From: Candidatus Sericytochromatia bacterium
GTDB taxonomy: Bacteria > Cyanobacteriota > Sericytochromatia > S15B-MN24 > UBA4093
DNA length: 32,000 nt
Reading direction: 5' to 3'
NCBI GenBank assembly: GCA_036676455.1
Contig: JAKFCW010000047.1
Span: forward strand, 69,203 to 101,202
The notes under the pieces were generated by a model. It saw only the letters and a program-made list of their open reading frames with translations, was not told the origin of the DNA and did no database searches. The position numbers and the translations under genes are program-made. Shown here piece after piece: positions 2,629 to 28,955 of the stretch; positions within the stretch are counted from its first letter, which is position 1, and each line of letters starts with the position of its first letter.

Positions 2629-2629
2629 C

Positions 2630-3325
2630 CTAGCCTCCTCCCCATGCGCCGTCCAGGACGCCTATCAAGCGACGCCGTCCATCCAGCAGCTCGGCGATCT
2701 GATCCAGGGCCGAAGCCAGGCGCTGGCCCTTTTGTGGATGGTACGCGATGGCCTTCGCCAGCATCTCCGTCTCGAGGATCGGAATCCGCGTCGCGAAGCG
2801 CTCCAGGGCTTGCTCCTCGGGAACGCCCCGCGCGACGTCCTGGCGCACGCGGCCGAACTGAGCCGCCACCGGCTGCATGCCGGATCGCTCGACGGCTTCG
2901 AGGGCCGTGAAGAACGAGTTGGTCGCTCTCAGCCGCTCGGCGAGAATCCGGACGGCCGCCGGAAGCTGCCTGCGGACCATGCGCATGCTCCAGCCTTTCC
3001 AGAGCAGGTCCCCGGTCCCGAGCACGAGCACGAAGCCTGAGACGGCGACGACCGCCGGCAGGAAGCCCCATGCGACCCAGGTCGGAACCAGCAGCAGGGC
3101 TCCCATCGTGGCGAGCCGGACGGCCTGCGGAACCCGTAGCTGGCGCTTGCGCGTGCGGGGCTTTCGCGCCCGCTTCTTGGGTTCCTCGACGGGAACCAGC
3201 GCTCCGCCGACGGTTTCCAGGCTATCGAGCCGGGACTTGACTCCCGACTTGCCGCGCGCGGGCCAGACGGCCAGGATGCCCAAGGCCACGCCCGTCACGG
3301 CGAGAAATAACAGCAAATAGGTCAT
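2630..3325 (-). CDS. T2SS-F-domain membrane protein, TadB-like, short and lacking the usual C-terminal TM segments
   Basis: 231-aa ORF with an N-terminal TM segment (LLLFLAVTGVALGILAV) and a central TM pair. A T2SS-F-like segment follows (LPAAVRILAERLRATNSFFTALEAVE...VPEEQALERFATRIPILETEMLAKAI). The protein ends right after this domain. Confidence 0.6.
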   Translation of the reverse strand: MTYLLLFLAVTGVALGILAVWPARGKSGVKSRLDSLETVGGALVPVEEPKKRARKPRTRKRQLRVPQAVRLATMGALLLVPTWVAWGFLPAVVAVSGFVLVLGTGDLLWKGWSMRMVRRQLPAAVRILAERLRATNSFFTALEAVERSGMQPVAAQFGRVRQDVARGVPEEQALERFATRIPILETEMLAKAIAYHPQKGQRLASALDQIAELLDGRRRLIGVLDGAWGGG

Positions 3326-3337
3326 GGCTAATCCCCG

Positions 3338-4480: not shown

Positions 4481-4818
4481 GATGCCGACGCTCCTTTTGA
4501 CGATTTGGCAGGGGCGGCGTCGATGATCTCGACCTTCAGGTCGGGCCCGTCCCATGAGAAGACGATCTGGCCGGGGCGGTCATGCGTGACCACCACGCGG
4601 CGCACGCTGCGGGGCGCCCCCGCAGGCAACACCTCCTGGCCCGGCAGGGGGGCCGCGACGGCCGGCAGGATCAGGGTCGCGGGATCCATTGCGGAGGAGG
4701 GTGCCGGGGGCTGCTGCTGGGTGGCGTAGAGGGCGCCGGTGGCGAGCAGGCCGCAGCACGCGGCGATCACGATCCGTTGCGGCGTGAGGTTACTGGTGAG
4801 GTTTCGCATGGCACTCAT
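4477..4818 (-). CDS. small membrane-anchored protein of unknown function, first gene of the Tad-like operon
   Basis: 113-aa ORF with GGGAGG upstream. It has one TM segment (IVIAACCGLLATGALY) followed by a Pro/Ala-rich region. It is translationally coupled (ATGA) to the TadZ-like gene. No family was recognised. Confidence 0.55.
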   Translation of the reverse strand: MSAMRNLTSNLTPQRIVIAACCGLLATGALYATQQQPPAPSSAMDPATLILPAVAAPLPGQEVLPAGAPRSVRRVVVTHDRPGQIVFSWDGPDLKVEIIDAAPAKSSKGASAS

Positions 4819-5005: not shown

Positions 5006-6115
5006 ATGACCATCCGCAGTCGAGTCGCCCTGGCGTTCGCGCTCCTCACCCCCCTGAGCGGCTGCTTCATGTGGCCCAGCACGAACGTGCAGCCGCCGGA
5101 CTGGGTCGAGCCCCCGGTCCAGGGCAGCACCTACACTCCGGGGCAACCCTCCCAGAACCCCGAGATCGAGATGTCCCGGCCCGGCTTGCAGGGCGGCACC
5201 TTCGCGGGCAGCGGAACCTCCGGCGCGGCCGACGGCGGCGCCACCGAGGCCCAGTTCCGCGAGCCCGAGGGACTCGTCATCGGCCCGGATGGCAGCCTCT
5301 ACGTCGCGGAGCCCTATGCCTACCGGATTCGCAAGGTCACGCCGGACGGCCGCGTCACCACGCTGGCCGGTGGCACGCTCGGCCGCGGTGACGGCAAGGG
5401 CGCCGGAGCCCAGTTCTTCGGGCCCAAGGACCTCGCTGTCGCGGCGAATGGCAACCTCTACGTCGTCGACTTCGATACGATCCGTCAGGTCACCCCGGAC
5501 GGCACCGTCACGACACTTAGCTTCCAGACCGCCGACGGCCCCTGGGATCCCGTCGAGCTGCTGGGAATCGCCCGCGCCACGGATGGCACCATGTACGTCT
5601 CCACGACCACCGGCATCGACCGGATCCAGGGCACCATGGCGAGCCGCTGGGTGGGCGCGGACGCCAAGGGGTTCCGCGACGGCAGCGGCACGGCGGCCTA
5701 CTTCAACCTTCCGCGCAAGCTGAGCCTCGACAGCCAGAACAACCTCTACGTCGCCGATTTCGGCAACCTGCGCATCCGCAAGGTCACCCCCTCGCGGCAG
5801 GTCACCACCGTCGCCGGCAACGGCATCCTGGGCTTCACCGACGGTGTGAGCAGCAAGTCGCGGTTGAACTTCCCGACGGGCCTCACGGTGGATAGCCAGG
5901 GCAACGTGCTCGTGGCCGACACCTACAATCACGCGATCCGGATGCTCTCGCCCGATGGCCATGTCACGACGCTGGCCGGCAACAACTACCCCGGCTTCGT
6001 GGAGGGTCCCGCGTCCTCGGTGCAGTTCAACCACCCGACCGACGTGGCCGTGGGAGGCGACGGTCGGATCTACGTGGCCGATCTCCAGAACCACCGGATC
6101 CGGGTTCTCCGCTAG
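5006..6115 (+). CDS. NHL-repeat (six-bladed beta-propeller type) lipoprotein
   Basis: 369-aa ORF with AAAGGAGGA upstream. The lipobox is LLTPLSGC. NHL-type units recur (LYVAEPYAYRIRKVTPDG, LYVADFGNLRIRKVTPS, VLVADTYNHAIRMLSPDG, IYVADLQNHRIRVL). Confidence 0.9.
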   Translation: MTIRSRVALAFALLTPLSGCFMWPSTNVQPPDWVEPPVQGSTYTPGQPSQNPEIEMSRPGLQGGTFAGSGTSGAADGGATEAQFREPEGLVIGPDGSLYVAEPYAYRIRKVTPDGRVTTLAGGTLGRGDGKGAGAQFFGPKDLAVAANGNLYVVDFDTIRQVTPDGTVTTLSFQTADGPWDPVELLGIARATDGTMYVSTTTGIDRIQGTMASRWVGADAKGFRDGSGTAAYFNLPRKLSLDSQNNLYVADFGNLRIRKVTPSRQVTTVAGNGILGFTDGVSSKSRLNFPTGLTVDSQGNVLVADTYNHAIRMLSPDGHVTTLAGNNYPGFVEGPASSVQFNHPTDVAVGGDGRIYVADLQNHRIRVLR

Positions 6116-6128
6116 CAAAGGAGTCGTC

Positions 6129-7304
6129 ATGCCGATCCGCAGCCTTTTCCTGGCCCTGTCGCTGACCCTGGTCGCCTGCAGCTCTCCGCCCTCGACGCCG
6201 GCTCCCACCCCGTCGGCCCCGGTGGCGACTCCGCCGGTCGTGAAGCCCGTCACGACGCCTCCGCCCGGCACGACTCCCGTCACCGCGAGCGATCCGTACG
6301 TCTGGACGGTCGCGGGCAACGGAACGGCCGGCTTCCTCGATGCCGAGGAAGGCCACCTGGGCATGCTCCATGCGCCGACCGGCATGGTCGTCATTCGGGG
6401 CGACACCTACATCGCGGACTCCGCCAACCACAAGATTCGCCGCCTGACCTACGACGGTGTGCTCGAGACCGCGGTGGGCACGGGAGAGCGCGGCAACAAC
6501 GGGGATGGCACGAACGGTCCCATGCTCAAGCTCGATACGCCGTTCAAGGTGACGGCCGACGAGGCCACCGGCAACGTCTTCTTCAGCGAGCTGGGCGGCA
6601 ACCTGATCCGCTGCATCGACATCTCCCGGCGGATCATCACGATCGCCGGCGGCGGCGATTACCTGCCCGATGCCGGCACGTCCATGCGTGGCGTCTACGT
6701 GCAGCTCTCGGAACCGGCGGGACTTTCCTTCGATTCGGCCGGCGAACTCTACGTCGCCGAGCGAGGCGGCCACCGGATCCTGCGGATTTCCACCGACTGG
6801 ATGGTGACGGTGGTGGCCGGCAACGGCGTCCCGGGCTTCGCGGGCGACGACGGCCAGGCGCTGGACGCCGAGTTCCGGCAGCCCACGGACGTCTTCGTGG
6901 ACGATCAGGACAACCTCTACGTGGCCGACACTGGCAACCATCGGATCCGCCGCATCGGCTCGGACGGCACGGTCACGACCGTGGCGGGCACGGGCGTCGC
7001 GGGGGGCGAGGGGGATGGGGGGCTCGCCACGGAGGCCCAGCTGAACCACCCGACCGGAGTCACGATCGACGCCTTCGGCAACCTCTACATCGCGGACTCG
7101 GGCAACCACCGGATCCGGCAGGTGCAGCCCGACGGGACCATCGTCACGATCGCGGGCTCCATCTTCGGCGGGTACGGCGGAGACGGGGAATTGCCGTCCC
7201 AGGCGCAGTTCAACATCCCCTACGGCGTGGCCGTGGCTCCGGGCGGGGTGCTGCTGGTGGCCGATCGCGACAACCACCGCCTGCGGCAGTTCATGCTACC
7301 CTAG
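6129..7304 (+). CDS. NHL-repeat lipoprotein, paralogue of the upstream gene
   Basis: I use the internal start at 6129 (MPIRSLFLALSLTLVACSS, lipobox LVAC), preceded by AAAGGAG at 6117-6123. A Pro/Thr-rich linker precedes the NHL units (YIADSANHKIRRL, LYVAERGGHRILRI, LYVADTGNHRIRRI, LYIADSGNHRIRQV, LLVADRDNHRLRQF). Confidence 0.9.
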   Translation: MPIRSLFLALSLTLVACSSPPSTPAPTPSAPVATPPVVKPVTTPPPGTTPVTASDPYVWTVAGNGTAGFLDAEEGHLGMLHAPTGMVVIRGDTYIADSANHKIRRLTYDGVLETAVGTGERGNNGDGTNGPMLKLDTPFKVTADEATGNVFFSELGGNLIRCIDISRRIITIAGGGDYLPDAGTSMRGVYVQLSEPAGLSFDSAGELYVAERGGHRILRISTDWMVTVVAGNGVPGFAGDDGQALDAEFRQPTDVFVDDQDNLYVADTGNHRIRRIGSDGTVTTVAGTGVAGGEGDGGLATEAQLNHPTGVTIDAFGNLYIADSGNHRIRQVQPDGTIVTIAGSIFGGYGGDGELPSQAQFNIPYGVAVAPGGVLLVADRDNHRLRQFMLP

Positions 7305-8499: not shown

Positions 8500-8528
8500 T
8501 AGTTAACCTTACCATTGCTTGCTTCAAA
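8500..8528 (-). promoter_or_regulatory. candidate promoter for the 343-aa lipoprotein gene
   Basis: On the minus strand: TTGAAG (8528-8523), a 17-nt spacer, then TAACTA (8505-8500). It sits in the most A/T-rich patch of the 101-nt gap. Confidence 0.2.
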
Positions 8529-9294
8529 CGGCTCCACCATGAGCAAGAAGTCGCTCGGTATCGGCGTAAATTGCCAGGTAATACGGAACCGTCAGCCGCT
8601 TTTGATCCTCGCACTCGAGCACCCATCCCAGGGGATGCGATACCAATACCCGTCCGTACAGGTTGCCCAGGCGCAAGCCCTCTCCAGGCCTGACCTTTTT
8701 CAAGCCCCTTCCCAAGACGAGGCTGGACAGGAGCAAACCGGTGGGGACAGCGAGGAGCGCCGAGACCCAAGGGGCCCAGGTAGCAAGGACGCTGAGTTCC
8801 AGGGTGGCCGCCAGGGTCGAAAGCCCGAATTGCGCGGATAGCAAGGCCGTCGCGATGCAGAGGGGAGGAAGGGCGATCGCCCCTTGCGGAACGATCCGCA
8901 TCTGGCGCTCCAGCTTCCGTTGCGCCGCGTCCTCGAGCTTGGCGAGCAACTCCGCGAGCACCGCTGCCACCGTTTCGGGATCGTCAGTCTGATCGAGAGT
9001 TTGCGTGAGACTTCCCCACGGGTCCCCATCCGATGGCTCAACGGGTTCGATGAGTGGCTTGCCTCTGGTCAGGAAATCGAAGAGGCGAACCCTGGATCGG
9101 ACGCTGGCATCCGGATCCGAGACAGCATCGGGAAAAACGTAGGGATTCGGACGTGGAGCGAGCTCCGGCGCTTCCACCTTGAAGACGTAGGGACTTCGAC
9201 GCGGTAGGCCCTTGATCGTGTTCAGGTCGATGACGTTAGCCATGGGACGTGCCGCAGGCGGTAGATCGGAAGTTCGCTGAGGGACGGACATCAC
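8524..9294 (-). CDS. two-TM membrane protein of unknown function, last gene of the mot operon
   Basis: 256-aa ORF. GTG at 9294 or ATG at 9291 overlaps the motB stop. The N-terminal ~140 aa are Pro/Asp-rich and soluble. Two hydrophobic segments follow (AIALPPLCIATALLSAQFGLSTL, WVSALLAVPTGLLLSSLVLG), then a short C-terminal domain. Confidence 0.65.
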   Translation of the reverse strand: MMSVPQRTSDLPPAARPMANVIDLNTIKGLPRRSPYVFKVEAPELAPRPNPYVFPDAVSDPDASVRSRVRLFDFLTRGKPLIEPVEPSDGDPWGSLTQTLDQTDDPETVAAVLAELLAKLEDAAQRKLERQMRIVPQGAIALPPLCIATALLSAQFGLSTLAATLELSVLATWAPWVSALLAVPTGLLLSSLVLGRGLKKVRPGEGLRLGNLYGRVLVSHPLGWVLECEDQKRLTVPYYLAIYADTERLLAHGGAV

Positions 9295-10025
9295 GGGGCC
9301 TCCTTCGGTTCGACCACGGGAATGGTTGCCGGGCGAGACTCGGGATAGAGCCGGATCACGATCCTGCGGTTGCGCGCCTGATTCTCCGGAATCGGCTTGC
9401 CCGCAGCGTCACGGTTGGGAACCTTCGGGTGGATATCCGAGTAGCCTGCGGCCTTGAGGCGCGATTGCTCCACGTCGGCCTCCAGCATGAAGCGGATGAC
9501 GTTCGTGGCCCGCCGCGCGGAGAGCTCCCAGTTGGAGGGAAATTCGGCGGTGCGAATCGGGTTATCGTCCGTATGCCCCTCCACCTCGATGGTGTAGGAA
9601 CGGTAGGTTTCGTTCTTCAACTCCTCGGCGATCTCGGTGAAGGTAGGCTTGATCGTCGGCAACAGCTCGGCCTTGCCGCTGTTGAAGAGGATGTTGGACG
9701 AGAATTCGACTACCACGCCCTTCTTGTCCTGGCTGACCTCGACCTGCTTTTCAAGGCCCTTGCTCTCGACGATCCGCTCGATCTGCTGCTTGATCTCCGA
9801 AATCGGACGTGCCGTTTCCTTACCGGTAAAGTCCTTTTGAAGCTGGGCGGAGACCTGCTCGAAGGCGCTGATGTCGACCGTTGAGACCGCCAGCATCATG
9901 ATGAAGAGCGCCATCAGGTTGGTGATGGTGTCGGCGTACGTGATCAGCCAGCCCTCGTCCTCCTGAAGTCCGCTGGAGCGGTGGGATCCGAAGGGATTGC
10001 GGTTCTGGCCGAAAGGACTTGCCAT
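9291..10025 (-). CDS. motB: MotB-type stator subunit with an OmpA-like peptidoglycan-binding domain
   Basis: 244-aa ORF. The TM segment carries the conserved Asp (WLITYADTITNLMALFIMMLAV). The C-terminal OmpA-like motif is VEGHTDDNPIRTAEFPSNWELSARRATNVIRFM. Confidence 0.9.
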   Translation of the reverse strand: MASPFGQNRNPFGSHRSSGLQEDEGWLITYADTITNLMALFIMMLAVSTVDISAFEQVSAQLQKDFTGKETARPISEIKQQIERIVESKGLEKQVEVSQDKKGVVVEFSSNILFNSGKAELLPTIKPTFTEIAEELKNETYRSYTIEVEGHTDDNPIRTAEFPSNWELSARRATNVIRFMLEADVEQSRLKAAGYSDIHPKVPNRDAAGKPIPENQARNRRIVIRLYPESRPATIPVVEPKEAP

Positions 10026-10846
10026 CAGGTCCTCGCGGGGGTCTTAGCCCCCTTCGATGCCGCGAAGTGGTCGTAGTGGAAGGCGGGATCCATCAGCGCG
10101 TTCAAGCGATCCTGGACGTACAGGGGCGCCTTCTTCTGCGCGATGAGGACGATGCCCTCGAGTTGCATGTAGCGGCGGTGGCGCTGGATTTCCAGGATCT
10201 GCTGGGTCTTGGAGGCCGCCGGGATGAAGAGCAGGCGGGCCGCCATGACGCCATAGAGGGTGGCCAGGAGCGCCACGGCCATCGCGGGACCGATCTTGGA
10301 GGGGTCGGATCCCATGTTGGCCATCATGATGACCAGACCGATCAAGGTCCCCACCATCCCGAAGGCCGGCGCATGGCCACCCATCTGGTGAAGGATGGTG
10401 GCGGGAACCATGCGTCGCTGATGCTCCGACTCGATGAAGTCCCCCAGGAACAAGCGCAGGTCGGGCTCCTTGTAGCCGTTCATGAGCAGGGTCAGGGCGT
10501 ACTTCAAGAAGCCATCGAGCTTCTTTTTGGCGACCTCATCCTCGAGGGGACCGAGGCTCTGCTGGGTCGCGTAAGACCACTCGACCATCTGCTTGATGTC
10601 TGAGCGCAGGGTGCTGGGCTGGATCGGCTGCATGACGAAGATGCGGCCGAGCGTGACGAGCGCGCGCCAGACGTAGCGACTCCGCGCCCCGATCATCGCC
10701 GCGGCCACGGTGCCGCCGAAGATGATGGCAAACGGCTCCAAGCTCCAGAACATCGCGATGCTGCCGGAGTGCGCGACGATCGCCCAGCCGGTCAGGCCGA
10801 AGCCCAGGATGATTCCGAGGACGGTGGAGATCGAGATCATCGGCAT
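10025..10846 (-). CDS. motA: MotA/PomA-type stator channel subunit
   Basis: 273-aa ORF with GGAGG upstream. There are two N-terminal TM segments and a large cytoplasmic loop. The signature GGHAPAFGMVGTLIGLVIMM is present, and the last TM segment contains LLFIPAASK. Both conserved prolines are present. Confidence 0.9.
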   Translation of the reverse strand: MPMISISTVLGIILGFGLTGWAIVAHSGSIAMFWSLEPFAIIFGGTVAAAMIGARSRYVWRALVTLGRIFVMQPIQPSTLRSDIKQMVEWSYATQQSLGPLEDEVAKKKLDGFLKYALTLLMNGYKEPDLRLFLGDFIESEHQRRMVPATILHQMGGHAPAFGMVGTLIGLVIMMANMGSDPSKIGPAMAVALLATLYGVMAARLLFIPAASKTQQILEIQRHRRYMQLEGIVLIAQKKAPLYVQDRLNALMDPAFHYDHFAASKGAKTPART

Positions 10847-10855
10847 TTCAACCTC

Positions 10856-12013
10856 CTATCGGAACGACATGCCGATGGTGGCATGGTAGCTCATCCCGCC
10901 GTACGTCATCGAATTCGCATAGCCGCTGCCGGCTGGGGCCAGGCTGACGTCCTGCTGCGGCACGTAGGTGAGCCCGAGGTTCATGAAGAGGTCCGGCGTG
11001 AAGCGGATCAAGAAGCCTCCCTTTGCGGTGGAGGGCTGGCGCAACGCGTCTGCGAGCGAGATCGCGAAGCCCGGCCCTGCGTACAGGTTGACCACGCCGA
11101 GGTTGTCCTTGCCCCCGAAGAGCGGGTCGAGACGCATGAACAGCAAGGGGGAGACGTTGACCAGGCCGTGATAGAGCGAGAAGTCGACGCCGCCGCCCTG
11201 GATGTACTCGGCATCGATACCGACCGCGAGATTCTCCCAGAAGTAGGTGTTGCGGAGCGCCATCACGCCAGCGCTCAGCGAGAGATCCGCATGACGCGCG
11301 GGAACTCCGGCCGTGGACGAGACCCGGTCGGCGGCGAAGCCCGTCACGCCGGAATAAAGGTAGACGCCATTGTCCCGGGTCTTCCGCTCGAGTTCGGCGC
11401 GCTTGGCGGCCTCGGCCTTGCGGGCTTCTTCCTCCGCCTTGGCGCGCATGGCGGCGCCCTGCCGAACGGCGTTGAAGTCGTAGGCATAGCGATGCGTCCA
11501 GACGATCTCGCCATCCGAGGCGCGCACCAGCTTGAGATGAACCATGACCACCTCGTTGGTCACGAAGGGCGCGTACATGAGCACGGCATCCGCCCCGACG
11601 TTTCCGGCCAGATCGCGCAGGCGATCCAGCGACTCGATGGTCGTGCTGACCTGGAGCTCGGTAGGCGTCGAGACGATCTTGCGGACCTTAGACTCGCGCG
11701 ACTCCACCACCTTGAAGCGACGAAGCGGCAGCAAGAGCTCGTGAAGGCGGTTCTCGACGAGGAGATCCAGCTTGTCGGTCTCGGGGCGGCGGCGCTCATT
11801 GAAAAGAAAGATCCGCAATAGCGTGGGATCGATCTTGGTGATCTCCTCGGGAAGCGCCGGGATGATCTGCTCGGCAGCCTGACTGTAGTTCAAGAGATCC
11901 GTGACGAGGGGATGCAGGGCAGGCGGCTCGACCTCGGCCATTGCCGGCGACGCGACGCTAGTCAAGGCGAGCGAAAGCGCGATTCCTCCAGATAGTAGCC
12001 ACTTGGCGCTCAC
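10856..12013 (-). CDS. secreted protein: periplasmic alpha/beta domain, charged coil and C-terminal beta-barrel (putative outer-membrane component)
   Basis: 385-aa ORF with a GTG start and GGAGGAGG upstream. The signal peptide is ALSLALTSVASPAMA-EV. The coil is AAMRAKAEEEARKAEAAKRAELERK. The last ~190 aa show alternating hydrophobicity and are Gly/aromatic-rich, ending in ...YHATIGMSFR. Confidence 0.75.
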   Translation of the reverse strand: MSAKWLLSGGIALSLALTSVASPAMAEVEPPALHPLVTDLLNYSQAAEQIIPALPEEITKIDPTLLRIFLFNERRRPETDKLDLLVENRLHELLLPLRRFKVVESRESKVRKIVSTPTELQVSTTIESLDRLRDLAGNVGADAVLMYAPFVTNEVVMVHLKLVRASDGEIVWTHRYAYDFNAVRQGAAMRAKAEEEARKAEAAKRAELERKTRDNGVYLYSGVTGFAADRVSSTAGVPARHADLSLSAGVMALRNTYFWENLAVGIDAEYIQGGGVDFSLYHGLVNVSPLLFMRLDPLFGGKDNLGVVNLYAGPGFAISLADALRQPSTAKGGFLIRFTPDLFMNLGLTYVPQQDVSLAPAGSGYANSMTYGGMSYHATIGMSFR

Positions 12014-12016
12014 CGA

Positions 12017-12766
12017 TTACCTCCTCCGATTCCGAATCCAGTCAAGCGCTTGCTGCGCGTCCGAGAGCCGTGGGTCCAACTCGAGGGCCCGGACCCACCC
12101 TTCCTCCGCCTGGCGCTCCCGACCAAGCTTGAAGCAAATCGATCCCCGCATGGCATGCAGGTGCGCCACCTGGTCGTCCACGCCCAGCGCGGCATCGACG
12201 ACCTCCAGGGCACTCTGGTAGCGGCCCTGCTGGGCCAGGCGCGGAGCACGGTAGAGCGCGTCGGCGACGATCTGCAGGCGTTCCGAGCCCAGCTCACGCG
12301 ACGCCGGTATCGCCGGAGCCTTGGCAGCGGCCGGCATCGGCAGCTCCGCATTCTTCGGGGTGGGAGTGGGGGAGGCCTGCGCCTGCAACTCCTCTTCCGC
12401 ATACTGCAGCCATTCGTAGGGCACATGGCTGGCGCTGGGGGAAGGCATCGGCTCGGGAAGGGCGCTGGTGGCCGACTCCTTGGCGTCGGTGCTCGAGGCT
12501 TCAGGGGTCGGCGAGGCCGCGGGAATCGCCCCCGGCGCGGGAGATTTGTCCATCTCGATGCGCAGGAAGAAATCAGGTTGATTGGTATCCAAGAGGGAAT
12601 CCACGTCAACCGTTTCCAGCCCGCGCTTCAGGTGGATGACTCCCTCGCGCTGGCCGGAAACCGGCGACGTCAGGCCCTGCTGGATGAGGACGAGGGGAAG
12701 CGTGGCGACGATGGTCAGGCCGTAGGCGATCGCCCAGACGCGCCGACGGTTCGGCAGATTTGCCAT
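12017..12766 (-). CDS. inner-membrane-anchored periplasmic TPR protein
   Basis: 249-aa ORF with GGAGGAAA upstream. The positively charged N-terminus and TM segment are MANLPNRRRVWAIAYGLTIVATLPLVLI. A Pro/Ala/Ser linker leads to C-terminal TPR-like units (RLAQQGRYQSALEVVDAAL, HAMRGSICFKLGRERQAEEGWVRALELDP). Confidence 0.75.
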   Translation of the reverse strand: MANLPNRRRVWAIAYGLTIVATLPLVLIQQGLTSPVSGQREGVIHLKRGLETVDVDSLLDTNQPDFFLRIEMDKSPAPGAIPAASPTPEASSTDAKESATSALPEPMPSPSASHVPYEWLQYAEEELQAQASPTPTPKNAELPMPAAAKAPAIPASRELGSERLQIVADALYRAPRLAQQGRYQSALEVVDAALGVDDQVAHLHAMRGSICFKLGRERQAEEGWVRALELDPRLSDAQQALDWIRNRRR

Positions 12767-12768
12767 GG

Positions 12769-14613
12769 TTAGTTTCCTCCGGCTTGCGGAATCACCAGCA
12801 CGCGGGTGGTCTGGCGAATCCGGCTAAGCAAATCACGGCGCATGGCCTCCCGGGCCTCCGGGTTGGCATCCAGCAGAGACGGGCCCTTGAGGGCCTCCTC
12901 GACGACCATGCGGCCGCGCTCGTTGAGCGCACCAACGAGCGCGTTGAGCACGTCGGCCGGCGCATCGCGCAGCACCTCGGCGAGTTGCTCCTTGGGGAAA
13001 TCGCGGACCGCATCGCGCAGCACGTCCTTGGGGAGCTTCGGCAAGTCGTCGAATGCCACGTAGCTTTGCTTGACCTGCTTGAGCACCTGGGGGTTCTGGG
13101 TCGACAGCTCCTGCATGATGCGCCGCTCCATCTCCCGGTCGGAGTGGTCCAACAGGCCCACCAGCACGCCGATGCCGTTGGTGACGCCCGTCGAGAAGCG
13201 CGGCGCCTCCGACGCCTTGCTTGCAAGGTGAAGCGCGATGTCGTTGAAGGTCTCGAGGGGAATCTCGGAAAGCGCGCCCATGGCTGCGGTGACGGTTCCC
13301 AGCTCCCCGGGACTCAGCAGGTGCATCAGGCCGATCGCCCGCTGGGGAGGCAGCTGGGAGAAGGCCAGCGCCTGGACGCGTGGGGACTCGTCCTGGAGGA
13401 TGTAAATGATTTGCGAGTCGTCGAGCGTCTGAAGAAAGGCGAAAGGCTCGTTACGGCGCGTGCTCGTCCGAGAACCGGCCGTGTGGCGATCGCGCACGAT
13501 GGCGCGAATGGCCTCGCTGAGGGCCTGTTGCAACTCCTCGGCGGGAACGTCGGCACGCTCGAACTGCTTGAGCTCGATCGCCCGCCAGATTTCCTCCGAG
13601 ACGCCTGCGAAGAGGCGACGGCTCACGCCCGCCCCGAGGGTACGGGTCAGCAGCGAGGCCCGCTCCATGCCAAGTTCTTGACCGAGCAGCTGGTGCATGT
13701 AGCGCTCGGCAAGCTCGGGCTCGCTCAGGATCAGCATCGTCAACTCGTGGCGCAGCGGCTCGAGGTTGGGCCCCTGAGGCTCGGCCGGCGTGCTCTTGAG
13801 AGCCGAAGCCGCGTGTGCGGCCTGCGGTGCGAGGGAAGGCGCATCCGGACGACGGCGCGAACGCGTGAGCAGCCACCCCAAGCCCAGTCCGGCGCCGGCA
13901 GCCAGGACGGCCCACGCCCACGGCGGAAGGAGCGGAGAATCAGCCGTGCCGGCGGGAGTCGACGGGAAGTCGCGGCGCGTGATCTCGACGATCAGGTCCC
14001 GGGCGTAGGCATGATCCACCTTCTGGGCGACCATGTTGCGAATGAAGTCCTCATCCTGGCTCGTCAGGGAGGTGGGCAGCACGACAGAAACTTTCAAACG
14101 ATCGATCGACTGGGTTGGAGCCGGATCGTTCGGAGGAGCCACGGGCGCCGGATTCGGCAGATAGGGCATCGCCATGGAGGAAGGCGGCTCGAGCGTCTCA
14201 TCCTCACGCTGTCCCCCGAAGAGGCCCGGAAGGATCGGCGGCTCGTCGGCGCCACGTGTCGACAGAGCCGAGGGCCGCTGCGTCGGAAGCTGGGGCAGCA
14301 TCTGAGGCGCTTGCTGAGGGAGCGGCTGTTGCACGTAAGCGGGCCGCGAGCCGCGCTCTCCGCCCTCCTTGAGGATCGCCTTCACCTGCACGATGAAGCG
14401 GTCGGCGCCGAGGTAGGCGCTCAGGCCACGATCCAGGCTCTCCTCGAGGTAGCGCTCGTAGCTCAGCACTCCCAGCTCAGACTCCGATCGGGGAACTTCC
14501 GGCGGATTGAGCTGCGCGCTGGCGGCCATGGGAACGAGGGTCCCCGCCAGCAGCGCTCCAATAATGACGGCTTTTCGATTCTTCAACGGTACGCAACCTC
14601 GCAATTGGTTCAA
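12769..14613 (-). CDS. membrane protein: FliF-like periplasmic segments fused to a FliG-like cytoplasmic region (N, middle and C-terminal parts)
   Basis: 614-aa ORF. The start is uncertain: TTG at 14613 or TTG at 14586. There are two TM segments. FliF-like patterns are YERYLEESLDRGLSAYLGADRFIVQVKA and IDRLKVSVVLPT...ARDLIVEITRRDF, the second lying directly before TM2. FliG-like stretches are FLQTLDDSQIIYILQDESPRVQALAFSQLPPQRAIGLM and VAFDDLPKLPKDVLRDAVRDFPKEQLAEVLRDAPADVLNALVGALNERGRMVVEEAL. Confidence 0.8.
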   Translation of the reverse strand: MNQLRGCVPLKNRKAVIIGALLAGTLVPMAASAQLNPPEVPRSESELGVLSYERYLEESLDRGLSAYLGADRFIVQVKAILKEGGERGSRPAYVQQPLPQQAPQMLPQLPTQRPSALSTRGADEPPILPGLFGGQREDETLEPPSSMAMPYLPNPAPVAPPNDPAPTQSIDRLKVSVVLPTSLTSQDEDFIRNMVAQKVDHAYARDLIVEITRRDFPSTPAGTADSPLLPPWAWAVLAAGAGLGLGWLLTRSRRRPDAPSLAPQAAHAASALKSTPAEPQGPNLEPLRHELTMLILSEPELAERYMHQLLGQELGMERASLLTRTLGAGVSRRLFAGVSEEIWRAIELKQFERADVPAEELQQALSEAIRAIVRDRHTAGSRTSTRRNEPFAFLQTLDDSQIIYILQDESPRVQALAFSQLPPQRAIGLMHLLSPGELGTVTAAMGALSEIPLETFNDIALHLASKASEAPRFSTGVTNGIGVLVGLLDHSDREMERRIMQELSTQNPQVLKQVKQSYVAFDDLPKLPKDVLRDAVRDFPKEQLAEVLRDAPADVLNALVGALNERGRMVVEEALKGPSLLDANPEAREAMRRDLLSRIRQTTRVLVIPQAGGN

Positions 14614-14677
14614 CTCTTTCCCCAGGATAGCGCTCGGCGCGCGATTCAGCGGTGACCCTCGTCATAGCCGGGTGCGG

Positions 14678-14687
14678 TATGATAACA
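14678..14687. promoter_or_regulatory. candidate overlapping divergent -10 elements
   Basis: The plus strand reads TATGAT (14678-14683), upstream of GGAGG (14699-14703) and the ATG at 14712. The minus strand reads TGTTATCAT (14687-14679), an extended -10 type element upstream of the 614-aa gene. No convincing -35 was found on either strand. Confidence 0.2.
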
Positions 14688-14711
14688 CCAGATAGTTCGG
14701 AGGCCATTCTC

Positions 14712-15227
14712 ATGCTTGTCACTCGCCCCCTCTGGGGACTTATCTGCGGTACGCTCTTGCTGAGCGGATTCAACTCTCCGGCCTGGGCCCAGGCGGCTCG
14801 GAACGCTGAGCGATCCCCCATCGAGTTCCGTCTTCACCACCCCGAGGCCACGGCATCGACGGACGTGGATATCTGGGCGCCGGCCGATCCCCGCGTGCTT
14901 CACGACACCCAGCAGGATCTCGCGGCCATCCAGCAGTCGGTCTCGCCGTCCCGAGACTCGCGCCCATCCTTCACCGACGCGCTCCTCACGGGGATGGCCA
15001 CGCTCCCGGTCATCGGCCAGTTCGCCAACCACGACTGGATGAAGGGCCTCGTCACCTTGGGCACCGCCGCCGGCCTCACGACCGCCATCGTGATCGGCAA
15101 CGACCGGAACGACCCGCAGCTCGTGCGGCTGGGAACCCTGGGCCTCTACCCCCTGGCGGTTTTCGGAACCGTGGACGCCCTCGTCACCCGCCAGAAACGG
15201 GAAGCCAAGCCTTCGGTTCACCCATAA
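14712..15227 (+). CDS. secreted or membrane protein of unknown function
   Basis: I chose the internal ATG at 14712, which has GGAGG 8 nt upstream. The signal peptide is MLVTRPLWGLICGTLLLSGFNSPAWA-QA. Two hydrophobic segments lie near the C-terminus (LLTGMATLPVIGQF, GLVTLGTAAGLTTAIVIG). Confidence 0.6.
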   Translation: MLVTRPLWGLICGTLLLSGFNSPAWAQAARNAERSPIEFRLHHPEATASTDVDIWAPADPRVLHDTQQDLAAIQQSVSPSRDSRPSFTDALLTGMATLPVIGQFANHDWMKGLVTLGTAAGLTTAIVIGNDRNDPQLVRLGTLGLYPLAVFGTVDALVTRQKREAKPSVHP

Positions 15228-15242
15228 ACCACCGGTCACGAC

Positions 15243-16001
15243 TTAGATCTTCACCTGGGTCAGCACTGCCTCCGCACGCAACCCTGCGACCGTGAACTGG
15301 GCCTTGACGAGCCCCACCCCGGGAGCGAACCAGGCCTCGGTCGGTTCGCCATGGTCCTCGACGTAAAGCACCTTCCAGCACCCGGGAAACGTCGCCACCT
15401 CCGTCTCGACGCGTTCCAATCCGATCAGACGCGCCTTTCCGTTGATTGACGGCCAGTACATGCCCGGCGTCGCACGTTGCGGCATCATGGGCTTGCCGTC
15501 GACCTGGATCCAATCCTCGTCAACGCGGGCCTTCCATGCTTGATTCCCCGAAAGCCACCCCACCGTGAAGCGCGATTCCACCTCCAGCTCGAAACCCTGG
15601 TTCTTCGGCTCAAACCTCTGCACTGTCAGCTCCATGCGGCCTTGGGGAAACCAGCCATCGATAGCACTTAGGCGGTAATTCAAGACCGTGTTCGCACTGA
15701 AAACCATGGGCCCCTGGACGAACGTCCGTTGCACGGCCTCCGACGTCCCCCCTGCAGCCCCCTCTCCGGGAGTCGAGGGTTCTGCAACGGGAGCGTCTTT
15801 GGCTCGGTCGCTGGTGGCCCCGTCTTCTTTCCGCTTTTCCGGCTTGTCTGCCAGGGGATCAACACTCCATTCCGCCGGAGGCTGAAGCATCGTTCCCGTC
15901 TCCTGCCATTCGGCAGGCAAGCCTACACCCGAACTTGGGCATCCTGCGAGGGGCCAAGCGATCAGAAAGGCGATGGCAAACCGCGCGACCGTCCAATTCA
16001 T
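15243..16001 (-). CDS. lipoprotein of unknown function, last gene of the lipoprotein array
   Basis: 252-aa ORF with an ATGA overlap with the upstream gene. The lipobox is AWPLAGC. A low-complexity linker leads to a beta-rich domain ending in EAWFAPGVGLVKAQFTVAGLRAEAVLTQVKI. Confidence 0.75.
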   Translation of the reverse strand: MNWTVARFAIAFLIAWPLAGCPSSGVGLPAEWQETGTMLQPPAEWSVDPLADKPEKRKEDGATSDRAKDAPVAEPSTPGEGAAGGTSEAVQRTFVQGPMVFSANTVLNYRLSAIDGWFPQGRMELTVQRFEPKNQGFELEVESRFTVGWLSGNQAWKARVDEDWIQVDGKPMMPQRATPGMYWPSINGKARLIGLERVETEVATFPGCWKVLYVEDHGEPTEAWFAPGVGLVKAQFTVAGLRAEAVLTQVKI

Positions 16002-17164
16002 GGGGTGGATTGGCCATCCGTTGGCACGATGAAAGGAATCAGGGCTGTGCGCCCAAACGCGTTCGCGCCACCATACGACCCGGATCCCTCCCAGTACTTG
16101 AGCACGTAGTAACGAGTCCCCGGATGGACCGTTTCGTCGAGCGTGAACGAGACCCGGGTCGTCATGGTCTCGGGGTCATGGGCCGAAGTCTCGTAACGCT
16201 GCAAGGGGACCAGACTCGAATTCGACTCCCTGACCGCGGAATCATAGATCTCGATGGCGTACTTCGGATCCGTCAGCCCGGTCTTGGCCGGAAACTCGAA
16301 AGTCACCTCCCGGGACTCCAGCACCGAATTCATCGCGGGAGTGGCTGCCGAGAGATCCCAACTCAAATCGAATTCGACCTCCGGGACCTCCGTTTGCGTC
16401 GCCGAAACCTGGACGGGCTCGGAGATGGCAAACTGGGGTCGGCGAGGCATGGCCGTGGCCACTGAGATCGTGCCCTCGAAGCCGGAATAGCCGGAGTAAG
16501 TGGGATACGAGCTGTGGTATCCCAGGTGGTAGGCCCCATCGCTCAGGTTGAAAAAGTTTGCGGCCCCCGCCGGGGTCACCTGGGTCGATCCGTAACTGTA
16601 AAAGTAGAACGGCGTGACACCCTCGCGCCGGAACACGCCCATCGAGAGCTGCTCACCAGTGGCTTCTCCGCCGATCACGCGACCGTAAAGCTGACTGCCC
16701 AGGACGTTTTGATCCACCAATGGAGTCAAAGGGCTGTATGGCATCACCGTGCTCTTGCCGGGGGTGTCGAGCAGGATGTGAAGCGAGGCGTAGCTGCGCC
16801 GTCCAGGCATGAGCATGGCCATGGTGTAGCCGTACCCAACGACCTCTCCGGATGCGAGCATGGCGCTGACCTTGATCGAGGCTTCCCCGGAAGGCAACCC
16901 TGAGAGGTCGATATAGTTGCTCTCAGCTTTCGGCAGGGTGCGCGTCTCCGTCCGACCATCCTCGAGCGTCAACTCGACTTTCAACTCGGCAAGATCCTCG
17001 GCGATGACCTGAGCCTTCCTCCCGAAGTCGACGCTCATGCGCAACGATGCGCCCTGGTGCTGGGACGAAACCAATGAAGGCATGGCTGCCGGGGCGCAGC
17101 CAGTTAGCCAAAGCGATGCCGCCACTGCGAGGGCGAAGGCCCGGGACGTGTGGTTTATCGTCAT
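15998..17164 (-). CDS. lipoprotein of unknown function
   Basis: This is the 399-aa ORF in the track. I prefer the start at 17164 (MTINHTSRAFALAVAASLWLTGC, lipobox LTGC). Alternative starts are at 17173 and 17197. The N-terminal beta module is ASLRMSVDFGRKAQVIAEDLAELKVELTLEDG. Confidence 0.75.
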   Translation of the reverse strand: MTINHTSRAFALAVAASLWLTGCAPAAMPSLVSSQHQGASLRMSVDFGRKAQVIAEDLAELKVELTLEDGRTETRTLPKAESNYIDLSGLPSGEASIKVSAMLASGEVVGYGYTMAMLMPGRRSYASLHILLDTPGKSTVMPYSPLTPLVDQNVLGSQLYGRVIGGEATGEQLSMGVFRREGVTPFYFYSYGSTQVTPAGAANFFNLSDGAYHLGYHSSYPTYSGYSGFEGTISVATAMPRRPQFAISEPVQVSATQTEVPEVEFDLSWDLSAATPAMNSVLESREVTFEFPAKTGLTDPKYAIEIYDSAVRESNSSLVPLQRYETSAHDPETMTTRVSFTLDETVHPGTRYYVLKYWEGSGSYGGANAFGRTALIPFIVPTDGQSTP

Positions 17165-17165
17165 G

Positions 17166-18074
17166 TCAATCATTCGCGACCACCCCTCCCCCTTCAAATA
17201 CGACCCCTTCCCGCATCAACGTCGAAACCACTCCGTTCTCGTCGCTGATGACTTCCTTGAGAAGGCCTTCCGATGCCCCGTACCAGCGATCCACGGTCAC
17301 CTCTGTCCATGTCTGCGCGTCGCCGGGATACTGGTTTGTCCAGCGATAATGGCGGACCTTGGTGCTCGGCGCTAGCAACTCGGAGTCCACGTAAACCGCG
17401 TGAGTCGGGATGGCGGTCCAGGAATCCGTCGGGTAAGATTCCGACACTCCTGCTCCAATTCGACGATAAACCGTCGAATACTGCACCTGAAAGGTCACCG
17501 CGACCCGCTGGGAGTCACGCGTAAGCCAGAAGAGCAATTGCTGCTGGTTCGGATAATACGCGGCAAAATCCGAATCGAATCCGTCTGCATGGCTCAGACG
17601 GCGGTAATCAAGCAGGCGTTGCCCAAAGCTGACACCAAGATCGAGTGCCGGCTTACCCCCGTGGAGTAGGCTGAAACTGACAGGTGTCTCCTCGCCCGGC
17701 AAGAGGACGACGGCCATTTGCTGCCTATCGTGCATCGCGTGGGTCTCGGCGTCGCGCGCCGTCACGGTTACCGTGACGGGACCGGGCACGAGATTCGCGA
17801 TTACAGTCGGTTCGTCGAGTTGAAGGACCCGGGGTTCAACCACGACATTGCGATACTCCCAGCCCGAGTACGCAACTTCGAGGAGCACCTCGATGCCTGC
17901 GGTGCTCTGGAGCTGGCGAGGCACAGAGACAATCGCTCTCATGCGACTCGTCTCGGCACTGGCGATCTCGGTCGCAGGTTGCAGAGTCGTCCCCGTCGTG
18001 GTCACGCCCTCGCAGCCCAGAAGGAACATGGTGGGCAGGGCCAAGAGCAGACCCCATCGATTCATCTTGCGCAT
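17166..18074 (-). CDS. lipoprotein of unknown function
   Basis: This is the 316-aa ORF in the track. I prefer the start at 18074 (MRKMNRWGLLLALPTMFLLGC, lipobox LLGC), 4 nt after the upstream stop. The beta module is RMRAIVSVPRQLQSTAGIEVLLEVAYSG. Confidence 0.75.
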   Translation of the reverse strand: MRKMNRWGLLLALPTMFLLGCEGVTTTGTTLQPATEIASAETSRMRAIVSVPRQLQSTAGIEVLLEVAYSGWEYRNVVVEPRVLQLDEPTVIANLVPGPVTVTVTARDAETHAMHDRQQMAVVLLPGEETPVSFSLLHGGKPALDLGVSFGQRLLDYRRLSHADGFDSDFAAYYPNQQQLLFWLTRDSQRVAVTFQVQYSTVYRRIGAGVSESYPTDSWTAIPTHAVYVDSELLAPSTKVRHYRWTNQYPGDAQTWTEVTVDRWYGASEGLLKEVISDENGVVSTLMREGVVFEGGGVVAND

Positions 18075-18078
18075 TACC

Positions 18079-19566
18079 CTACCCTTCCTCGGACGGTGCG
18101 GCCGGCGTGAAGTCAATCAACTCGTAGGTGGTCACCTGGCGCTGGCGAGGGAGGGGGTCCCGTTTGCCTTCGTGGGAATAGTGGTATCCACCGACGCGAG
18201 TCTCCACGGAGCGCACGACGCCCACGCCCTCGACCAGCCAAACCTCACGGGTGACTCCGGATTCGGGGCTGGTGAAATAGTGCTTCGCCAGTCGTTGACC
18301 GAGGGCCGGAACGTTGAGCGTCACCTCAGGCAAGGTCTGGATGCCGTTAGTGGAACTCAAGCGAAAGATCGGACTCAGCTCGGAAGCGGACCCGTTCGCC
18401 AAGTCGAACGCCCGCAAGGTCGAGTAGCTGTAGGACTCATATTGCCCGCGCCCGTCGTCATCGAGCATCTCCACCCGCATCGTGCGGCTCCAGGACGACG
18501 TGCCCCCTCCCTGAGACTGCGGATAAGTGTAAGTTGTGCTCACAAGGTAGTTCCAGCGCGTACCGGCGGCCAGGGGGAGTGCCTCGAAAGGCGGCTTCCA
18601 AAGGTCCTGCCCCACCCAGCGAGTGGGGTTCTGGGGTGGGGCATCCGGAACCTCGATGAGTTCCACGTCTAGCGAGGCGGTGGCCTGCGTGGGCATCGAG
18701 AAGTCGATACTACGTGACGTGACGCCGTCCACCATGACCATGAACTTCGGCTGGAGCTTGTCGGGCTTGGTGAAGTAATCGGCAAAACCGGAGAGCAGGT
18801 CATGGGGGACCGTCAGGGTGAGTTGCGTGTCGGAATCGACGGTGACGGCGGTTTCCGGAAGCGACCTGCGCATCATTCCAAACCCTCCTGATGGCACTGG
18901 CATCGGGAAGATGAGGTTTGAATAAGGCAGGTACTGGTAATTCAGCCCCACGTAAGCCAGGGTTTTCCAGTTCTTGGACTTGCCAAAGCCAGAGCCGGCG
19001 ACGATGATCCGGTCTCCAACCCGCCAGTCGCTCTTGGACAGCGAGGTGATCACCGGCGCGTCAACGGCCACGAGCTCCATGCCGACCGTCGCGAAGAGGC
19101 CAGGCACGACGTCGATGCGCTTCTCGTCCGAAGCCACGACCTGATTCTGAGCGTCACGAACTTCTGCCTGAATGAGCAGATCCGCCTGGACCGGAAGGTC
19201 CCATCTCAAGGAACCGTAAGTGTTGAACCCGGCGGGGTAAGGGCCGTAGTAATAGGGATCCGCCTGGCGGTAGATCTCCACGGGGGCGATCGCCTTTCCC
19301 GACGAATCAATCGCCTGCGATCCATCCGCGCGCGTCAGCGTAACGACCGCCTTGATCGCCCGGTTGGGAATCGCCTGGAGGGAGGAACCGGAATCCGGCC
19401 AGCGAATGCCCAGCCCCAGGCCGCCGACTCCAGCCTGTGTGTGCGCCTCCGTTTGCCCCGTGCCGATCGCATTCGAGGTCCACTGAGTGCCAACAGGAAC
19501 CGTGCAACCCAACAGGGCTGAAACGAGGCCGAAGGCGATCCACGTCTTGAAATCTCGCTGTCTCAT
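18079..19566 (-). CDS. lipoprotein with an IPT/TIG-like Ig domain
   Basis: This is the 504-aa ORF in the track. I prefer the start at 19566 (MRQRDFKTWIAFGLVSALLGC). The N-terminal module is GLGIRWPDSGSSLQAIPNRAIKAVVTLTRADG. The IPT/TIG-like stretch is PVITSLSKSDWRVGDRIIVAGSGFGKS. The C-terminal module is EVWLVEGVGVVRSVETRVGG. Confidence 0.8.
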   Translation of the reverse strand: MRQRDFKTWIAFGLVSALLGCTVPVGTQWTSNAIGTGQTEAHTQAGVGGLGLGIRWPDSGSSLQAIPNRAIKAVVTLTRADGSQAIDSSGKAIAPVEIYRQADPYYYGPYPAGFNTYGSLRWDLPVQADLLIQAEVRDAQNQVVASDEKRIDVVPGLFATVGMELVAVDAPVITSLSKSDWRVGDRIIVAGSGFGKSKNWKTLAYVGLNYQYLPYSNLIFPMPVPSGGFGMMRRSLPETAVTVDSDTQLTLTVPHDLLSGFADYFTKPDKLQPKFMVMVDGVTSRSIDFSMPTQATASLDVELIEVPDAPPQNPTRWVGQDLWKPPFEALPLAAGTRWNYLVSTTYTYPQSQGGGTSSWSRTMRVEMLDDDGRGQYESYSYSTLRAFDLANGSASELSPIFRLSSTNGIQTLPEVTLNVPALGQRLAKHYFTSPESGVTREVWLVEGVGVVRSVETRVGGYHYSHEGKRDPLPRQRQVTTYELIDFTPAAPSEEG

Positions 19567-19576
19567 GCTTCGTCCC

Positions 19577-21301: not shown

Positions 21302-21315
21302 GGCTGTTACCTCGG

Positions 21316-22863: not shown

Positions 22864-22916
22864 GGTGTCGCGCGGTCTCCTGCTACATCGAAATGCGATC
22901 AATTGCACGTCTTGCG

Positions 22917-28954: not shown

Positions 28955-28955
28955 G

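Follow-up and report, generated by a model that had tools for sequence, protein, structure and literature searches.

To my knowledge, all well-studied uses of the rotor protein FliG and of flagellar-type MotAB stators lie inside flagella, and all known non-flagellar ion-driven envelope motors are built from Exb-, Tol-, Gld- or Zor-type units and possess no rotor ring. Here, I describe a flagellar-type rotor-stator in an apparently non-flagellar envelope module of five genes (g1 to g5), to which a sixth (g6) is appended. The operon lies on the minus strand at positions 8524-14613 of a 32,000-nucleotide stretch (hereafter the window) of contig JAKFCW010000047.1 (assembly GCA_036676455.1), which belongs to a Candidatus Sericytochromatia bacterium, the Sericytochromatia being a non-photosynthetic cyanobacterial class.

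ExbBD-TonB, TolQR-TolA-Pal, AglRQS-Glt, GldLM with the type IX secretion system (T9SS), and ZorAB resemble the module in combining an inner-membrane, ion-driven unit of the A5B2 type with periplasmic and outer-membrane partners, which jointly convey energy from one side of the envelope to the other in the absence of a flagellum. They differ from it by their Exb/Tol- or Zor-type stators with condensed cytoplasmic domains, by the passage of force through the B subunit or through a TonB-, TolA- or GldM-like partner, and by the lack of any FliG rotor or FliF-type ring. In Pfam and NCBIfam scans no TonB or TolA domain was found on the module proteins, whose B subunit is of the MotB type, and none of g1 to g6 was matched by a Gld or Por family. 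A parallel with Agl-Glt or GldLM had been drawn from the letters of the window before any database search (hereafter the sequence-only reading); it is a likeness of logic only.

With the flagellar motor core the module shares a stator with plug, Asp32, OmpA domain and expanded MotA loop, the N, M and C domains of FliG with the torque-helix Arg kept in g1, and probably a motif like the third ring-building motif (RBM3) of FliF, in which g1 carries an insertion at the putative position of the beta-collar. In addition, g1 mimics engineered FliF-FliG fusions, which are reported to assemble rings (PMC6079021, PMC11481574). Unlike the flagellar core, the module has no genes for RBM1/2, FliM/FliN, type III export, rod, hook, filament or LP-ring nearby, has lost the EHPQ motif of FliG, and encodes proteins which all fall below the NCBIfam equivalog cutoffs; moreover, FliF has two transmembrane (TM) helices, whereas g1 has a cleavable signal peptide and a single TM helix.

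I estimate at roughly 0.6 the probability that the operon encodes a self-contained, ion-driven rotor-stator machine which spans the envelope and is not part of a flagellum. Because rotor, stator and scaffold come without secretion system, axle or filament, and the five-gene set recurs in many uncultured bacteria, this is probably an envelope machine that has so far escaped description, and one that bears on the origin of the flagellar motor. The homologies, the domain architectures, the residue conservation and the occurrence of the five genes across lineages in non-flagellar neighbourhoods are direct observations, set out below.

The packing of the six genes is as it had been described at first sight: gaps of 2, 3 and 9 nt separate g1 to g4, and overlaps of 1 and 4 nt join g4 to g5 and g5 to g6. 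Codon-position GC backs coding on the minus strand for g1 to g5, and g6 has the weakest coding signal of the block (GC at third codon positions, 0.68). No terminator- or promoter-like site was seen on the minus strand within the block, in a scan that was uninformative and whose sigma-70 consensus may not fit the phylum. Since the same gene set is found again in dozens of independent loci, a chance arrangement is far from plausible. The Pfam and NCBIfam scans of the window covered 26 open reading frames (ORFs) of about 150 aa or more; among these, in agreement with the sequence-only reading, no FliM, FliN, FlhA/B, FliPQR, FliI, rod, hook or flagellin family was matched.

The candidate rotor protein g1

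The product of g1 (12769-14613, minus strand; 614 aa) is modelled by AlphaFold2 (AF2) with a signal peptide (residues ~11-33), a periplasmic ring-building-motif domain (49-213; alpha-beta / beta-alpha-beta) interrupted by a two-armed insertion rich in Pro (85-166; LPGL at 128-131), then a TM helix (231-251) and a cytoplasmic, full-length FliG-like region (~285-606) made of N-like (285-381), M (390-470) and C (480-606) parts. In database entries its start lies nine codons later (605 aa), and both candidate TTG starts have a purine-rich stretch upstream. The cytoplasmic part matches Pfam FliG_M (2.4e-7) and FliG_C (1.8e-9), both above cutoffs, and aligns over 315 columns with the full-length FliG 3hjl in Foldseek; along the same line, a profile of the g1 family matches T. 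maritima FliG (1lkv) in the PDB with E 1e-17. Unlike the soluble FliG of ~330 aa, the 614-aa g1 is membrane-anchored, and at 45.8 bits it does not pass the FliG equivalog model TIGR00207 (cutoff 226.7). A weak Pfam match to MgtE_N was also obtained: the cytosolic N-domain of MgtE has a FliG-like helical fold in common with g1, but g1 has neither the transmembrane nor the CBS domains of MgtE, and it resembles FliG much more strongly, over the N, M and C domains alike.

On the periplasmic side, g1 itself has no direct match to Pfam YscJ_FliF_C and none to YscJ_FliF (PF01514, RBM1/2); it holds a single ring-building motif and one TM helix. Its link to FliF is transitive, and passes through a Marinimicrobia locus (L047) in which the two halves are unfused. 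This locus encodes three tetratricopeptide-repeat (TPR) proteins, MotA, MotB, a 504-aa protein and a 310-aa FliG, with a further TPR protein just downstream. The 504-aa protein passes YscJ_FliF_C (PF08345; E 9.8e-10, 39.5 bits, cutoff 23.8), has no N-terminal YscJ_FliF domain (PF01514), and gave no match in a phmmer search of the PDB; hhalign aligns the g1 family with it over the whole periplasmic domain, LPG and RGD motifs included (probability 98.9%, E 2.6e-17). The 310-aa protein passes FliG_N, FliG_M and FliG_C, and scores 165.9 bits with the g1 profile as against 67 bits for T. maritima FliG. Since hhalign ties the periplasmic domain to a YscJ_FliF_C protein, g1 is, as judged by sequence comparison, probably a natural fusion of a minimal FliF, which presumably amounts to the RBM3/collar region only, with a complete FliG. 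The FliF/FliG-like fusion that the sequence-only reading had called is in this way borne out on both sides of the membrane, by the alignment with full-length FliG and by the periplasmic homology to the unfused FliF-like protein.

An LPGLP-type motif is found in 58 of the 59 members of the g1 family (LPG in 54, MPGLP in 3, LPALP in 1), where it marks the midpoint of the insertion; the arms on either side are 13-63 residues long each, and their lengths covary (r = 0.85). The sole member devoid of the motif (P0051) is encoded by a gene which also has no MotAB beside it. I read the insertion as a two-armed hairpin with the LPGLP motif at its tip, and I take it to occupy the same topological position as the beta-collar of FliF within RBM3.

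The same insertion also figures in a non-rotary explanation, by which the operon would encode a transducer of the Tol-Pal or ExbBD-TonB type: g1, as a monomer or small oligomer, would pass force through its Pro-rich loop to g3, with MotAB pulling or twisting the FliG-like domain and no large ring turning. In the Sericytochromatia the insertion does contain 23% Pro, which recalls the Pro-rich spacer of TonB; partnership with an outer-membrane barrel and with a TPR lipoprotein is obligatory, and all other known non-flagellar 5:2 motors work in this manner according to reviews. Pro-richness, however, is not family-wide (4-10% in many other members), the stator is of the flagellar type with expanded torque-generating loop, plug and OmpA domain, and a complete FliG and a FliF-type ring-building motif form rings in every studied case, so that a non-rotary role would put them to odd use. 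A transducer of this kind is considered unlikely.

Within the FliG-like region, the equivalent of FliG R281 is R or K in 55 of the 59 members and an invariant Arg in the clade of the window (Arg566), and the equivalents of D288 and D289 vary across the family, the window having E572, E573 and A574. The FliM-binding EHPQ(R) motif of FliG_M is not conserved: only its Glu is kept (55/59), the H and Q positions vary, and the window reads ESPR.

Stator and scaffold proteins

Flagellar-type stators make up the 'FIT' clade of PMC12505986, where a plug, the channel Asp and an OmpA domain set them apart from generic ion transporters; the loop of their A subunit is expanded for torque generation. The product of g4 (10025-10846, minus strand; 273 aa) matches Pfam MotA_ExbB (5.7e-21); its cytoplasmic loop is expanded, and of its four TM helices the third and fourth (TM3 and TM4) keep the conserved prolines; that of g5 (9291-10025, minus strand; 244 aa) matches MotB_plug (1.7e-15) and OmpA (9.8e-18). 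The landmarks that had been singled out by eye, namely the PAFGMVGT and LLFIPAASK motifs of MotA, the channel Asp of MotB (Asp32, in ...LITYADTITNLM) and an OmpA-like peptidoglycan-binding domain, are all present, and Asp32 is kept in every orthologue inspected. The flagellar character attributed to the stator is likewise upheld, for in a phmmer search of the PDB g4 aligns end to end with the solved stators C. sporogenes MotA (6ysf, 8.8e-29) and PomA (8bri, 7e-28), and no ExbB or TolQ chain was matched. An Exb/Tol-type energiser was rejected on this ground and on the behaviour of the NCBIfam exbB and tolQ models, which cover only a short stretch of g4 at 15-20 bits. The best NCBIfam MotA model reaches 146 bits (cutoff 237) and the best MotB model, MotD, 166 bits (cutoff 283), MotD, MotB and MotS all remaining below their cutoffs; by these scores, g4 and g5 are relatives of the named flagellar stators and not their orthologues.

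In the flagellum, MotA and FliG meet through the charge pairs R90/D288-D289 and E98/R281 (PMC12505986). In the module, the E98-equivalent is acidic in all MotAs examined, and most of the family carries Arg or Lys at the position of R90; two Sericytochromatia loci (L003 and L006) have an Arg one residue after this position. On the rotor side, most members of the g1 family have a Glu at the D289 position, and in the Sericytochromatia relatives of the window the acidic residues have moved one or two positions earlier than D288/D289. The co-variation of the two sides is suggestive, the independent lineages being too few for it to count as evidence.

Two Sericytochromatia metagenome-assembled genomes (MAGs) have a second stator pair, in the order MotB-MotA, directly after the module MotAB (L006, 15223-16690; L007, 15235-16228); it is 42% (MotB) and 30% (MotA) identical to that of the window and keeps an Arg at the R90 position. 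Since this pair adjoins the module MotAB, two stator types may serve one rotor in these organisms.

A MotAB-type channel could also belong to a Zorya-like anti-phage system, and the module MotB does match the ZorB models of PADLOC (best 4.4e-24), which reflects the shared MotB fold. Nevertheless, MotA (273 aa) has neither a ZorA match nor the long ZorA tail, no ZorC/ZorD-like protein was seen, g1, g2, g3 and g6 have no PADLOC match, and the neighbourhoods are of housekeeping genes and not defence islands. With generic ZorB matches only and no ZorA, ZorC or ZorD, Zorya was rejected on PADLOC and may be deemed wholly implausible.

The two remaining proteins of the module recall the scaffolds of high-torque flagellar motors, namely the T-ring (MotX/MotY) and H-ring (FlgO/FlgP/FlgT) of Vibrio and PflA/PflB of Campylobacter and Helicobacter, in that a TPR/Sel1-type (lipo)protein and a FlgO-fold protein are encoded together with stators; the module of a Gammaproteobacteria MAG (L008) adds a protein with Sel1 and SPOR domains. 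Unlike the Vibrio T-ring and H-ring, the module has no FlgP, FlgT or MotY. The product of g2 (12017-12766, minus strand; 249 aa) has TPR repeats at about residues 170-245 (Pfam TPR_2 2.5e-6, also TPR_1 and TPR_16); in the window it has an N-terminal hydrophobic anchor, in most other lineages it is a predicted lipoprotein with a lipobox-type N-terminus, and an orthologue is present in the module at all complete loci. The product of g3 (10856-12013, minus strand; 385 aa) is modelled by AF2 (pLDDT 77) with a signal peptide and a periplasmic domain (67-179) that resembles FlgO/LpoB/PelC/TolB-N; a long helix (180-211) comes next, and the C-terminus is a beta-barrel (216-384) of eight strands, similar to OmpA/Ail/OmpW. 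Foldseek against the PDB assigns its N-domain to the LpoB/GNA1162/PelC/TolB-N fold; Pfam FlgO is matched by g3 below threshold only (E 0.056), and four orthologues have a precomputed Pfam FlgO (PF17680). The FlgO of V. cholerae is anchored to the outer membrane and assembles as a 58-mer ring within the H-ring (bioRxiv 10.64898/2025.12.02.691832). The Vibrio protein uses a lipid anchor, whereas g3 has a barrel of its own.

The likeness to MotX, PflAB and FlgO consists of fold and weak sequence matches, from which I infer scaffold roles for g2 and g3. The sequence-only reading had likened the logic of the operon to Agl-Glt and GldLM/T9SS; as to g2 and g3, this is to be amended, since both are closer to the flagellar scaffolds MotX/PflAB and FlgO than to components of Glt or T9SS. 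Its picture of products spanning the envelope is retained, with g1 and the stator in the inner membrane, g2 in the periplasm and the g3 barrel predicted by AF2.

As regards the accessory membrane protein g6 (8524-9294, minus strand; 256 aa), whose start overlaps the motB stop by 4 nt, hydrophobic segments are found in its C-terminal half and no match in Pfam, NCBIfam or PADLOC. Beyond the window, it is matched only in the nearest relative CBMW_12 (L002; 32.5% identity) and is absent from all other modules, and it was rejected as a core component. What had been taken for a block of six genes is better described as a conserved unit, g1 to g5, with a lineage-specific add-on.

Distribution of the five-gene set and the proposed machine

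Searched against 1.84 billion representatives, the g1-family profile retrieved 3340 proteins at E ≤ 1e-3, of which 95 reached E ≤ 1e-30; the weaker matches probably include ordinary FliG, the M and C domains being common to both. The best 150 matches are mostly ~600 aa long; an N-terminal signal peptide is followed in them by a TM helix around residues 200-300, and the C-terminal part is FliG-like. Nearest to g1 stand 22 metagenome and MAG proteins, and a repeat of the homologue search with the 59-sequence alignment returned nothing beyond these same 22 Sericytochromatia proteins. A scan of one genome per species gave six loci, four of them in Candidatus Sericytochromatia (including CBMW_12) and one in Stenomitos, among which g1 identity goes down to 40%; by tblastn, g1 to g5 stand in the same order at every locus that is long enough (L002, L003, L006 and L007). 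The metagenome scan added 33 further loci, mostly marine.

By means of local hidden Markov models for the five proteins, all five genes were found together in 24 fetched loci (a count which includes L001, a second copy of the window itself) and in at least four gene orders, most of the other loci being cut by contig ends. The carriers are Sericytochromatia, one Gammaproteobacteria MAG and marine metagenome contigs. Synteny in other genomes, on which the sequence-only reading had staked its claim, is in this manner observed for g1 to g5.

Gene order and surroundings vary between these loci. A case in point concerns the gammaproteobacterial L008, with the order Sel1/SPOR - MotA - MotB - g3 - TPR - g1, where (at 12614-18819) the module, its Sel1+SPOR protein before MotA, directly adjoins a BBP2_2 barrel together with a locus for polysaccharide export of the Wza/Wzc/Wzy type. 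The metagenome locus L009 has the order g3 - TPR - g1 - MotA - MotB and mixed neighbours (histidine kinase, cobyrinic-acid synthase, M4 peptidase, LysR regulator), and both L011 (metagenome) and L046 (MAG GCA_050293925.1) have g1 - g3 - TPR - MotA - MotB among gatB, rnhB, apbE and similar housekeeping genes; L011 has, in addition, a second pair of g3-like and TPR genes ~2 kb downstream of the module (14185-15676). The recurrent neighbours of the marine loci, identified by eye, are fumarase, alkaline phosphatase, a PpnN-like protein and a CBS-domain protein, and in the metagenome loci inspected no neighbour other than housekeeping genes recurs. Among the called genes of L008, L009, L011, L046 and L047 no flagellar Pfam family was found.

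These neighbourhoods bear on the possibility that the operon is a motor part, either displaced or specialised, which serves an ordinary flagellum, whose regulon lies elsewhere and to which it would supply, or duplicate, MS-ring/FliG, stators and scaffolds. Every recognisable part of the module has a flagellar counterpart, genes for stators commonly lie away from the rest of the flagellar set, and flagellated members do occur in the sister class Melainabacteria. Yet the five genes travel together among housekeeping genes, the sole recurring neighbours in the metagenome loci inspected, with no flagellar Pfam in five annotated loci; g1 and its L047 relative do not have the RBM1/2 region of FliF (Pfam YscJ_FliF), the housing of the export gate; the FliM-binding EHPQ motif is not conserved; and FliG, MotA and MotB fall far below the flagellar equivalog cutoffs of NCBIfam. 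A displaced flagellar part is accordingly held to be quite unlikely.

Some contigs bearing the module are labelled as photosynthetic cyanobacteria, namely Stenomitos sp. (L004, DATNQJ010000279.1) and Pantanalinema sp. (P0018/P0019). Their g1 and the neighbouring DUF5723 barrel are Sericytochromatia-like, and the contigs are short (3 kb in L004), so that mis-binning or mislabelling is possible. Other loci depart from the common pattern. On a circular-looking contig of 2.1 Mb (L012, 10001-13709), a divergent g1 paralogue of 771 aa, devoid of the LPGLP motif, is followed by a KAP-family P-loop NTPase instead of MotAB, which suggests that a membrane-anchored FliG-like scaffold has been put to a different use. 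In L043 (2660-6334), two tandem g1-like genes stand beside a TPR gene, with no MotAB within 14 kb.

In the self-contained machine favoured here, MotA5B2-type units of g4 and g5, anchored to peptidoglycan, would let H+ or Na+ pass along the channel at MotB Asp32, and the cytoplasmic loop of MotA would push the FliG-like C-terminal domain of g1. Through its single RBM3-like motif, g1 would assemble as a ring in the inner membrane, underlain by a ring of FliG, and the action of the stators would turn this ring. The two-armed insertion, tipped by LPGLP, may project into the periplasm like the beta-collar of FliF and serve as output or contact element, and g2 and g3 would form a static periplasmic and outer-membrane scaffold, with counterparts in MotX/PflA/PflB and in the FlgO ring of Vibrio H-rings. 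Such a machine would operate without switch complex, type III export gate, rod, hook or filament.

Several points weigh against this proposal. Ring formation and rotation are what I infer from homology alone; the AF2 model of g1 is of low confidence (pLDDT 68, pTM 0.28), its insertion of ~80 residues is predicted to be disordered, and in Foldseek its periplasmic domain resembles FliF RBM3 and EscJ only weakly (E 0.4-1). At the rotor-stator interface, the R90-equivalent of MotA is a Gln in the window and its Sericytochromatia relatives, and the D289-equivalent of FliG is small and uncharged (Ala, Val, Thr) in the same clade, being Ala in the window, so that one canonical charge pair is missing. 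At three loci (L012, L034 and L043) a g1 relative has no adjacent MotAB. Lastly, the sister class Melainabacteria includes flagellated members (PMC6340189).

The module proteins are named by NCBI 'FliG C-terminal domain-containing protein' or 'hypothetical'. In full-text searches, which did not cover subscription literature, no description of a FliF/FliG-MotAB module outside flagella was found, and full-text literature searches likewise gave no statement on whether the Sericytochromatia are flagellated. If the machine exists as proposed, the envelope machines that transduce energy would gain a new kind, at home in Sericytochromatia, Gammaproteobacteria, Marinimicrobia and further uncultured lineages. 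It would also offer a tractable minimal torque system of five proteins, with no switch and no axle, and it would open to test the long-standing question of whether the flagellar rotor-stator once worked as a unit in its own right, without the type III secretion core. A bolder and doubtful extension, put forward tentatively, is that of an autonomous rotary nanomachine, a FliF/FliG ring spun by MotAB under an outer-membrane cage with neither secretion system nor axle, in a lineage that parted from the flagellar motor either earlier than the latter's joining with type III export or apart from that event. This would be a living 'motor-first' intermediate in flagellar evolution and a new class of envelope machine, which might serve to move cells over surfaces, to handle polymers or pili, or to remodel the outer membrane; a module both autonomous and early-branching would be categorically new.

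Neighbouring genes in the Sericytochromatia

In the window, a DUF5723, weakly PorV-like outer-membrane barrel of the FadL type lies at 23097-24389 on the minus strand (Pfam DUF5723 1.1e-11; NCBIfam PorV_fam 2e-7, 30.9 bits, cutoff 90). It stands 8.5 kb upstream of g1, and directly beside g1 in all six other Sericytochromatia loci (L002-L007). Two sets of Tad genes flank the module. In the first (1837-4818), a 263-aa protein accompanies a ParA/CpaE-like ATPase (3338-4555) and a short T2SSF protein (2630-3325); the second (27980-32000) comprises CpaF (29891-31444), two T2SSF proteins (27980-29963) and, toward the end of the window, a second CpaE-like gene (31317-31739 and beyond). Both sets are kept around the module in CBMW_12, CpaF, TadB and TadC lie beside it in L006, and no Tad gene is found within 10 kb of it in L003. 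The Tad-type modules and FadL/PorV-like barrel that had been noticed in the flanks are real, with T2SSF matched three times, T2SSE, the ParA/CpaE-like ATPase and the DUF5723 barrel; the same scans also returned NHL-repeat proteins and many proteins with no known domain.

By a last alternative, the operon would be an accessory energiser dedicated to the neighbouring Tad-type pilus or PorV-like secretion genes, which might, for instance, rotate or retract a Tad pilus or drive the release of cargo at the outer membrane. CpaF/TadB/TadC genes do lie within 10 kb in the window, CBMW_12 and L006, the DUF5723/PorV-like barrel abuts g1 in the six other Sericytochromatia loci, and nearly all genes between 7.4 and 31.7 kb are on the same strand. 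Outside the Sericytochromatia, however, such neighbours are missing (L008, L009, L011, L046, L047 and the metagenome loci), and even within the class L003 has no Tad gene in reach, so that energising would be at most the use that one lineage makes of a general machine; the explanation is judged very unlikely. Because they are absent beside the module elsewhere, the Tad and PorV-like genes are not intrinsic to it, and the idea that these flanks are part of the machine had to be dropped, their conservation being confined to the Sericytochromatia; the linkage was rejected as a general feature of the module. For the self-contained machine, the PorV-like barrel and the nearby Tad-type genes are nonetheless the leading candidate clients in this class.

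Relative to CBMW_12, the barrel and g1 are set apart in the window by an insertion of ~8 kb, made of six consecutive minus-strand genes (15243-22908). None has a significant Pfam match, one has sub-threshold Big_2 and CarboxypepD_reg, at least one has a lipoprotein-like N-terminus, and their GC content is 0.60-0.63, as against 0.67-0.69 in the flanks of the window. Between these upstream genes and g1, a small membrane protein with no known domain is encoded on the plus strand (14652-15227), 42% identical to its positional counterpart in CBMW_12. Also on the plus strand, and a short way downstream of the block, are two tandem genes for NHL-repeat beta-propellers (5006-7304), which occupy the same place in CBMW_12 with 76% identity.

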